Below, piece by piece: positions 30,782 to 31,048 of a DNA stretch of 64,000 nt (position 1 is the first letter of the stretch; each line of letters opens with the position of its first letter). The DNA is from Escherichia coli. Its GTDB lineage: Bacteria > Pseudomonadota > Gammaproteobacteria > Enterobacterales > Enterobacteriaceae. The position numbers were made by a program, and so were the translations under genes. The stretch lies in assembly GCF_003790525.1 (NCBI RefSeq), contig NZ_CP033635.1; one strand, written 5' to 3'. The notes beneath the pieces were generated by a model. It was given only the letters and a program-made list of their open reading frames with translations. It did not search any database and was not told the origin of the DNA.

Positions 30782-31048
30782 GTGCTTAGAGTTACCACTG
30801 CAGCGCATAACCGTGGCAGCAGGCCCGGACAGAACAAACGGCTCAGGACATTATCGGTAGGGGACGCACTGCTAGTCTGTAAACTGAACCGACTGGGGCG
30901 CAGTATGTGGCATCTTGTCGTGCTGTTGGAGGAGCTGTGCGAACGTGGTATTAACTTTCGTGCTCTGGCCCAATCTATATTTGCCCAACAATGGGGGGAC
31001 GGAAGCTGTAAAAGTAAAACAATCTGCGATCTCAGAGTTATTGTGTGA
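30782..31048 (+). pseudogene. pinH: Serine recombinase (Pin/Hin DNA invertase) internal fragment
   Basis: 88-aa ORF ...RPGQNKRLRTLSVGDALLVCKLNRLGRSMWHLVVLLEELCERGINFRALAQSI... resembles the middle of Pin-family invertases but lacks the N-terminal catalytic Ser region and the C-terminal HTH. Gene symbol tentative. Confidence 0.6.

Follow-up and report, generated by a model that had tools for sequence, protein, structure and literature searches.

In Escherichia coli K-12, the interval between ypjA (b2647) and ypjB (b2649) carries pinH (b2648), a curated pseudogene at positions 2783065-2783304 of the MG1655 chromosome (NC_000913.3). The gene listing in PMC10652928 gives an identical K-12 gene order. 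Active Pin-family invertases of E. coli are on record as well, PinQ being described as such in PMC12529663 and PinR in bioRxiv 10.1101/2025.03.28.646004.

The stretch of DNA analysed here (the window, 64,000 nucleotides) contains at 30782-31048 an ORF that a sequence-only reading had taken for the central part of a Pin/Hin-type DNA invertase, stripped of the catalytic N-terminus and the helix-turn-helix (HTH), and for a relic of a phage or invertible-segment system beside ypjA. When 30450-31260 was used as the query, 100% identity was found with the chromosome of E. coli SMS-3-5 (NC_010498.1). K-12 pinH (240 bp) maps onto 30809-31048 of the window, in the same place in the series ileY-ypjC/B-pinH-ypjA and with collinear sequence. 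Hence we conclude, judging from position and alignment, that the feature is the SMS-3-5 ortholog of pinH and as such already known, having been flagged by K-12 curation and by PGAP. It is very probably a non-functional relic. The significance of the finding is small; what is gained is the anatomy of the remnant, namely a 5' truncation junction that lies against a remnant of IS3.

Locus and gene order

In the PGAP annotation of SMS-3-5, the genes at the locus follow in the order glaH, an amylase-family gene, ileY, ypjCB, a recombinase pseudogene, a 39-codon ORF, ypjA, ssrA and smpB. The ORF was present as the sequence-only reading had given it, with the quoted peptide. The features referred to below are the following:

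28181-28256: tRNA gene ileY, anticodon CAU
29012-30451, plus strand: ypjCB pseudogene (internal stop), left neighbour, from the PGAP annotation of SMS-3-5
30726-30743, plus strand: left terminal inverted-repeat tip of IS3 (IS3 nt 1-18), TGATCTTACCCAGCAATA, 18/18 positions identical to the IS3 of pCP301
30744-30825, plus strand: internal fragment of IS3 orfB (about IS3 nt 446-528), 82 bp, by blastn
30782-31048, plus strand: the ORF, GTG start, 88 codons (88 aa), including KLNRLGRSMWHLVVLLEELCERGINFR
30812-30979: PGAP pseudogene, 'recombinase family protein, incomplete, missing N-terminus and C-terminus'
30821-30982, plus strand: the pinH remnant proper, covering roughly codons 42-95 in a Gin/Cin/Pin-type gene of 185-190 codons, by DNA and protein matches
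30983-31006: spacer of 24 bp, with the invertase fragment on its left and the ypjA upstream block on its right
31007-31357, plus strand: ypjA upstream block, 311/351 positions identical (89%) to L006:4001-4350 by blastn
31203-31322: 39-codon ORF 5' of the ypjA start (31387)
31387-35955, plus strand: ypjA, adhesin-like autotransporter gene, right neighbour
36116-36478, minus strand: ssrA (tmRNA)

The internal stop of ypjCB is found in SMS-3-5 and K-12 alike, the K-12 copy being split as ypjB and ypjC, and strains A_5 and AR_0372 have it annotated as an intact gene of about 484 codons. The alpha-amylase-family gene before ileY (about 25370-27620, minus strand; L001:922-3174) is intact in SMS-3-5 and is the pseudogene ygaQ in K-12. 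In SMS-3-5, ssrA sits 160 bp past the end of ypjA (region 35956-36478). Since ssrA follows directly after ypjA, SMS-3-5 is without CP4-57, the cryptic prophage which in K-12 lies between ssrA and ypjA.

The invertase-derived fragment

The similarity of the ORF to serine recombinases is, by every alignment made, far beyond chance. The Pfam Resolvase profile (PF00239) matched it with an E value of 4.8e-9 (36.9 bits, cut-off 23.3), profile positions 47-102 of 145 aligning with ORF residues 12-65. The solved structures of Mu Gin (4m6f/3uj3) gave an E value of 6e-14, with Gin 38-95 aligned to ORF residues 10-67. The full-length invertases of a P2-like prophage (188 aa), of Fels-2 (185 aa) and of P1 (Cin, 186 aa) were used as tblastn queries against all six frames of 30300-31400 under permissive settings. 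Residues 39-94 alone matched significantly, at 30812-30979 and with 64-70% identity; residues 1-38 and 95-188 of the three proteins remained unmatched in any frame within 500 bp, the rest having E > 0.6. When compared with the invertases of phage genomes (Fels-2, SEN8, P1/P7 Cin, D6 and others), the 55-residue core showed 66-72% identity. At the DNA level, the invertase gene of phage vB_EcoM-606R2 agrees with 30821-30961 at 83% of positions and that of a P2-like phage at 80%; identity to a P2-like prophage invertase is 75%. Among the 15 phage records inspected out of 36, nothing beyond this 141-bp invertase piece was found to have phage homology in 30440-31260; the 21 other records include some Stx-converting phages. 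Of the intact relatives, the tail-fibre invertases of phages come nearest, in agreement with the proposal of a phage or invertible-segment relic next to ypjA.

The invertase-derived share of the ORF amounts to about 52-56 of the 88 codons, or about 155 bases of the gene's central part. The earlier view of the ORF as the centre of an invertase is thus borne out by PF00239, Gin and tblastn for this share and does not extend to codons 1-14, which are IS3, or to codons 76-88, which belong to the ypjA upstream block. The predicted absence of the catalytic N-terminus and the HTH was confirmed by the limits of the three alignments. By tblastn, the catalytic-serine motif (MLIGYVRVSTxxQ, Ser9/10; MLIGYVRVSTNDQ...) is absent from 30300-31400 in any frame, and the place of the missing N-terminus is taken by IS3 DNA. 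The E-helix forms the dimer interface of serine recombinases; for this helix and the C-terminal HTH (residues ~100-190), tblastn found nothing past residue 94. The best candidate for HTH remains in another frame, KQSAISELLCDFYVSRRY, was rejected, as it aligned to Cin 162-176 with E=31 and its DNA is part of the ypjA/ycgI block. The P1 annotation puts the enhancer at nt 19-90 of cin; the equivalent codons 1-41 are missing from the remnant, and so the Fis-dependent enhancer is absent. In the part that is left, the conserved Asp of KLDRLGRS is changed to Asn in all five lineages aligned.

A scan of the 64 kb with a 26-bp crossover consensus (hix/gix/cix type) returned one match, at 47993 and thus 17 kb away; this is chance level, as 27% of shuffles reach that count. 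Inverted repeats suitable for bracketing an invertible segment were not found in 27900-36600, in keeping with the earlier impression that no crossover sites are obvious in the flanks, and no tail-fibre genes lie beside the remnant. With neither catalytic serine, E-helix and HTH nor enhancer and crossover sites, the fragment cannot recombine DNA.

An IS3 remnant at the 5' junction

The IS3 remnant at 30726-30825 had been missed by the sequence-only reading and is previously unremarked; on the alignments it marks the 5' truncation junction. The annotated left end of IS3 in pCP301 is L009:1069-1086, 56 bp before IS3 ORF1. The 64-kb window has one copy of the tip, against 0.02 expected by chance even with 3 mismatches permitted, and no IS3 right end is present anywhere in it. 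When 30731-30825 was compared by blastn, it was 81% identical to IS3 ORF2 of pCP301 (L009:1501-1596, corresponding to IS3 nt 433-528) and 78% identical to an IS3-family transposase in L003. In the orfB piece, a reading stretch of 22 residues is still open in K-12 and is interrupted by stops in SMS-3-5.

The matches of the tip and of orfB overlap on an imperfect repeat, TTACCCAGCAATA at the terminus versus TTACCCGGTCAAA inside orfB, and the K-12 sequence reads as terminus nt 1-18 joined directly to nt 446 onward. The alignments indicate that IS3 suffered an internal deletion of 427 bp (nt 19-445) between imperfect TTACCC...A repeats. Because homology to IS3 reaches to 30825 and that to the invertase begins at 30821, the junction can be placed at about 30821-30825; its specific sequence pattern is AACCGTGGCAGSAGRNCCGGACWGAA. 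It follows from this position that codons 1-14 of the ORF derive from IS3, in another reading frame.

The 3' junction and the ypjA upstream block

On the right-hand side, the invertase fragment gives way to the spacer, which had no match besides in the phage-record search, and then to the ypjA upstream block. The counterpart of the block, L006:4001-4350, is the ymgJ/ycgI upstream region, which precedes an autotransporter pseudogene beside ymgJ. Left of 31007, the ypjA and ymgJ/ycgI loci have no sequence in common. The ymgJ/ycgI paralog is also the second match site seen in most of the complete genomes. The sequence pattern of the 3' junction is ATATTTGCCCAACAATGGGGGGAC. As the block begins at 31007, the last 14 codons of the ORF and its stop (codons 76-88 and stop) lie within it. 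On this evidence the ORF is a mosaic of IS3, invertase, spacer and ypjA leader region, and because such a mosaic combines three unrelated DNA sources, the 88-aa ORF should not be treated as a protein.

Within the upstream block, 31200-31340, which includes the 39-codon ORF, is 100% identical across the five divergent lineages aligned (adjoining 70-bp bins, 83-97%) and is also ~95% identical at the paralogous ymgJ/ycgI locus. Comparison of the 39-codon ORF with the paralog revealed five differences. For two of them the codon position was assigned, in each case position 2, so that coding constraint on this ORF is doubtful. The stretch 31200-31340 had no Rfam match and its RNA fold was unremarkable (z = 0.35). 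Possibly it serves these autotransporter genes as a conserved leader or regulatory element.

Distribution, conservation and decay

Of 5426 complete E. coli genomes, 3001 (~55%) have the arrangement ypjCB-remnant-ypjA with at least 80% query coverage, mostly with 90-95% identity to SMS-3-5. Five divergent lineages were aligned, SMS-3-5, K-12, O157:H7 F1273, AR_0372 and A_5. The IS3 tip, the IS3/invertase junction and the 3' junction are common to all five, and the truncations therefore probably predate their split. A TAA stands at codon 9 in K-12, O157 and A_5, with a second stop in A_5, and in AR_0372 a 1-nt deletion causes a frameshift within the invertase part. Among the five, the 88-aa open frame is thus specific to SMS-3-5, a point missing from the anatomy first proposed; with stops or a frameshift in four of the five lineages, the frame has not been kept by selection.

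The 21 variable sites of the invertase part are distributed 8/7/6 over codon positions 1/2/3 in the five lineages, and identity per 70-bp bin (83-100%) is not above that of flanking non-coding DNA. In bin 30920-30989 of the fragment, four of the five lineages agree at 97-100% of positions, and adjacent non-coding bins are similar. To judge from these comparisons, the fragment is evolving neutrally since its truncation. That over half of the complete genomes keep these boundaries could, together with the conserved bin 30920-30989, hint at constraint. Bins 30570-30639 (79-84%) and 30780-30849 (83-93%) show unusual divergence between lineages relative to their neighbours. The intergenic region is thus a patchwork of conserved and fast-changing stretches.

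A protein database search yielded 26 homologues, all of them short E. coli fragments of 48-133 aa, and among them no intact close relative of the ORF. A seemingly fuller pinH, P0008 (116 aa), in which an intact N-terminus precedes the tail of the remnant, was rejected as a probable assembly chimera across a shared stretch of ~80 bp. Its source, by way of which P0008 has entered the public protein collection, is an ENA metagenome scaffold of 1050 bp (RUBE20-1_SAMN11977875_METAG-scaffold_25675; L004:1-1050). The 5' ~540 bp of the scaffold are 94-97% identical to tail-fibre/invertase DNA of P2-like prophages, and the remainder has exactly the sequence of pinH and the ypjA leader in K-12; a join of this type occurs in none of the 5426 complete genomes. 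Neither Rfam families nor terminators nor an excess of promoters were detected in 30300-31500.

Proposed course of truncation

From the boundaries described above, we infer the order and mechanism of the deletions as follows. The locus once had a Gin/Cin/Pin-type invertase gene, like those by which P2-like, Mu-like, P1-like and e14-like phages invert segments of their tail-fibre genes, and about codons 42-95 are what is left of it. On the 5' side, a deletion would have fused the invertase piece to the interior of IS3 orfB; as the piece is joined to the orfB interior, the end points of this deletion lie inside IS3 and inside the invertase gene. The IS3 copy itself is down to its left tip and 82 bp of orfB, probably because DNA between two short imperfect repeats within it was deleted. 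At its 3' end, the fragment stops 24 bp before the left edge of the ypjA upstream block. Neutral drift followed truncation, and the 88-codon ORF of SMS-3-5 is an accident of this drift.

Alternative explanations

A resolvase of the Tn3/gamma-delta type, or else a large serine recombinase, might be the source of the fragment in place of a DNA invertase. This would fit some weak matches, with E values of 1e-3 to 1e-2 for the gamma-delta and Tn3 enzymes and of 0.05-0.1 for the XisF and CcrB/C models. The E value of 6e-14 for Gin versus 1e-3 for resolvases, together with the identity to phage invertases (64-72% for protein, at most 83% for DNA), places the fragment in the Hin/Gin/Cin/Pin branch and leaves a resolvase origin with practically negligible probability. 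We also consider it extremely unlikely that the ORF gives rise to a small partial-recombinase protein, which might for example form dead heteromers and so interfere with resident Pin-family invertases. E. coli does possess active invertases of this family, PinQ and PinR, and the 88-codon frame is open in SMS-3-5. However, that frame is broken in K-12, O157, A_5 and AR_0372, no Shine-Dalgarno-like sequence can be read before the GTG, no promoter-like site was found on the plus strand of 30400-31450, the dimer interface formed by the E-helix is absent and the substitutions have no codon-position bias.

The remnant might instead act as DNA, co-opted as a binding site or spacer into the regulation upstream of ypjA. 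Its location ~400 bp upstream of ypjA, which it always accompanies, and the identity of 97-100% in 30920-30989 among four lineages would agree with such a role. Yet the block that ypjA and ycgI have in common starts at 31007 and leaves the remnant outside, the plus strand of 30400-31450 is free of promoter-like sites, the remaining bins of the remnant are 83-96% identical, like flanking non-coding DNA, and in P0024 and P0025 deletions extend from the remnant into ypjA. We regard co-option as very unlikely. That the boundaries of the relic became fixed in thousands of genomes through service to ypjA, or through a small transcript or peptide modulating resident Pin-family invertases, is very unlikely as well. 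The reading that we prefer is that of a non-functional relic orthologous to pinH.

Origin of the islet

The G+C content is low (29-45%) over 25000-31500, and the islet, flanked by a tRNA gene and ssrA, holds two scraps of mobile elements. No other phage genes were found in the islet, nor any att-like or tRNA-derived direct repeats bounding it. In none of the 5426 complete genomes are ileY and ssrA directly adjacent, hence no empty site was found. The mobile-element origin that the sequence-only reading had invoked for the islet is weakly supported. Acquired DNA would fit the patchy presence (3001 of 5426 genomes), the low G+C, the flanking tRNA gene and ssrA, and the two scraps, invertase relic and IS3; however, a further phage gene and att-like repeats are lacking, and the locus lies outside CP4-57. 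As evidence for phage and IS DNA once present in the ileY-ssrA islet, the relic counts for a little.

Comparison with known systems

With the phage invertases (Gin of Mu, Cin of P1, those of Fels-2 and P2-like phages, and the e14-like Pin), the remnant has in common residues ~39-94 at 64-72% identity, with DNA identity of at most 83%. The phage enzymes and their surroundings, however, include residues 1-38 with the catalytic serine, residues 95-190 with the E-helix and HTH, the enhancer, the crossover sites and the tail-fibre genes, none of which the remnant has. The likeness to IS3 is exact over 18 bp of the left terminus and ~80% over 82 bp of orfB, whereas nt 19-445, everything past ~nt 528, the right end and an intact transposase frame are missing. 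The invertase gene of vB_EcoM-606R2 is the closest DNA relative among the matches listed (83%) and is likewise cut in this part of the gene. In contrast to the remnant, it retains the N-terminus and is cut after ~codon 88 by another insertion. As that insertion is a different one, its truncation is independent of that of pinH. In the phage (L014:2378-3542), a gene of unknown function for 282 aa on the opposite strand occupies the position of the 3' half of the invertase gene.

A further close counterpart is K-12 pinH itself. K-12 has CP4-57 past ypjA whereas SMS-3-5 has none; in MG1655 the prophage ends at 2777971, short of ypjA, and as SMS-3-5 keeps the remnant without CP4-57, the remnant is not a part of this prophage. 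In K-12 pinH a TAA shuts the frame at codon 9, whereas the frame of SMS-3-5 is without this TAA and the ORF starts 27 nt further upstream. The two copies agree in place, in both junctions and in 94.6% of their DNA over 810 bp.
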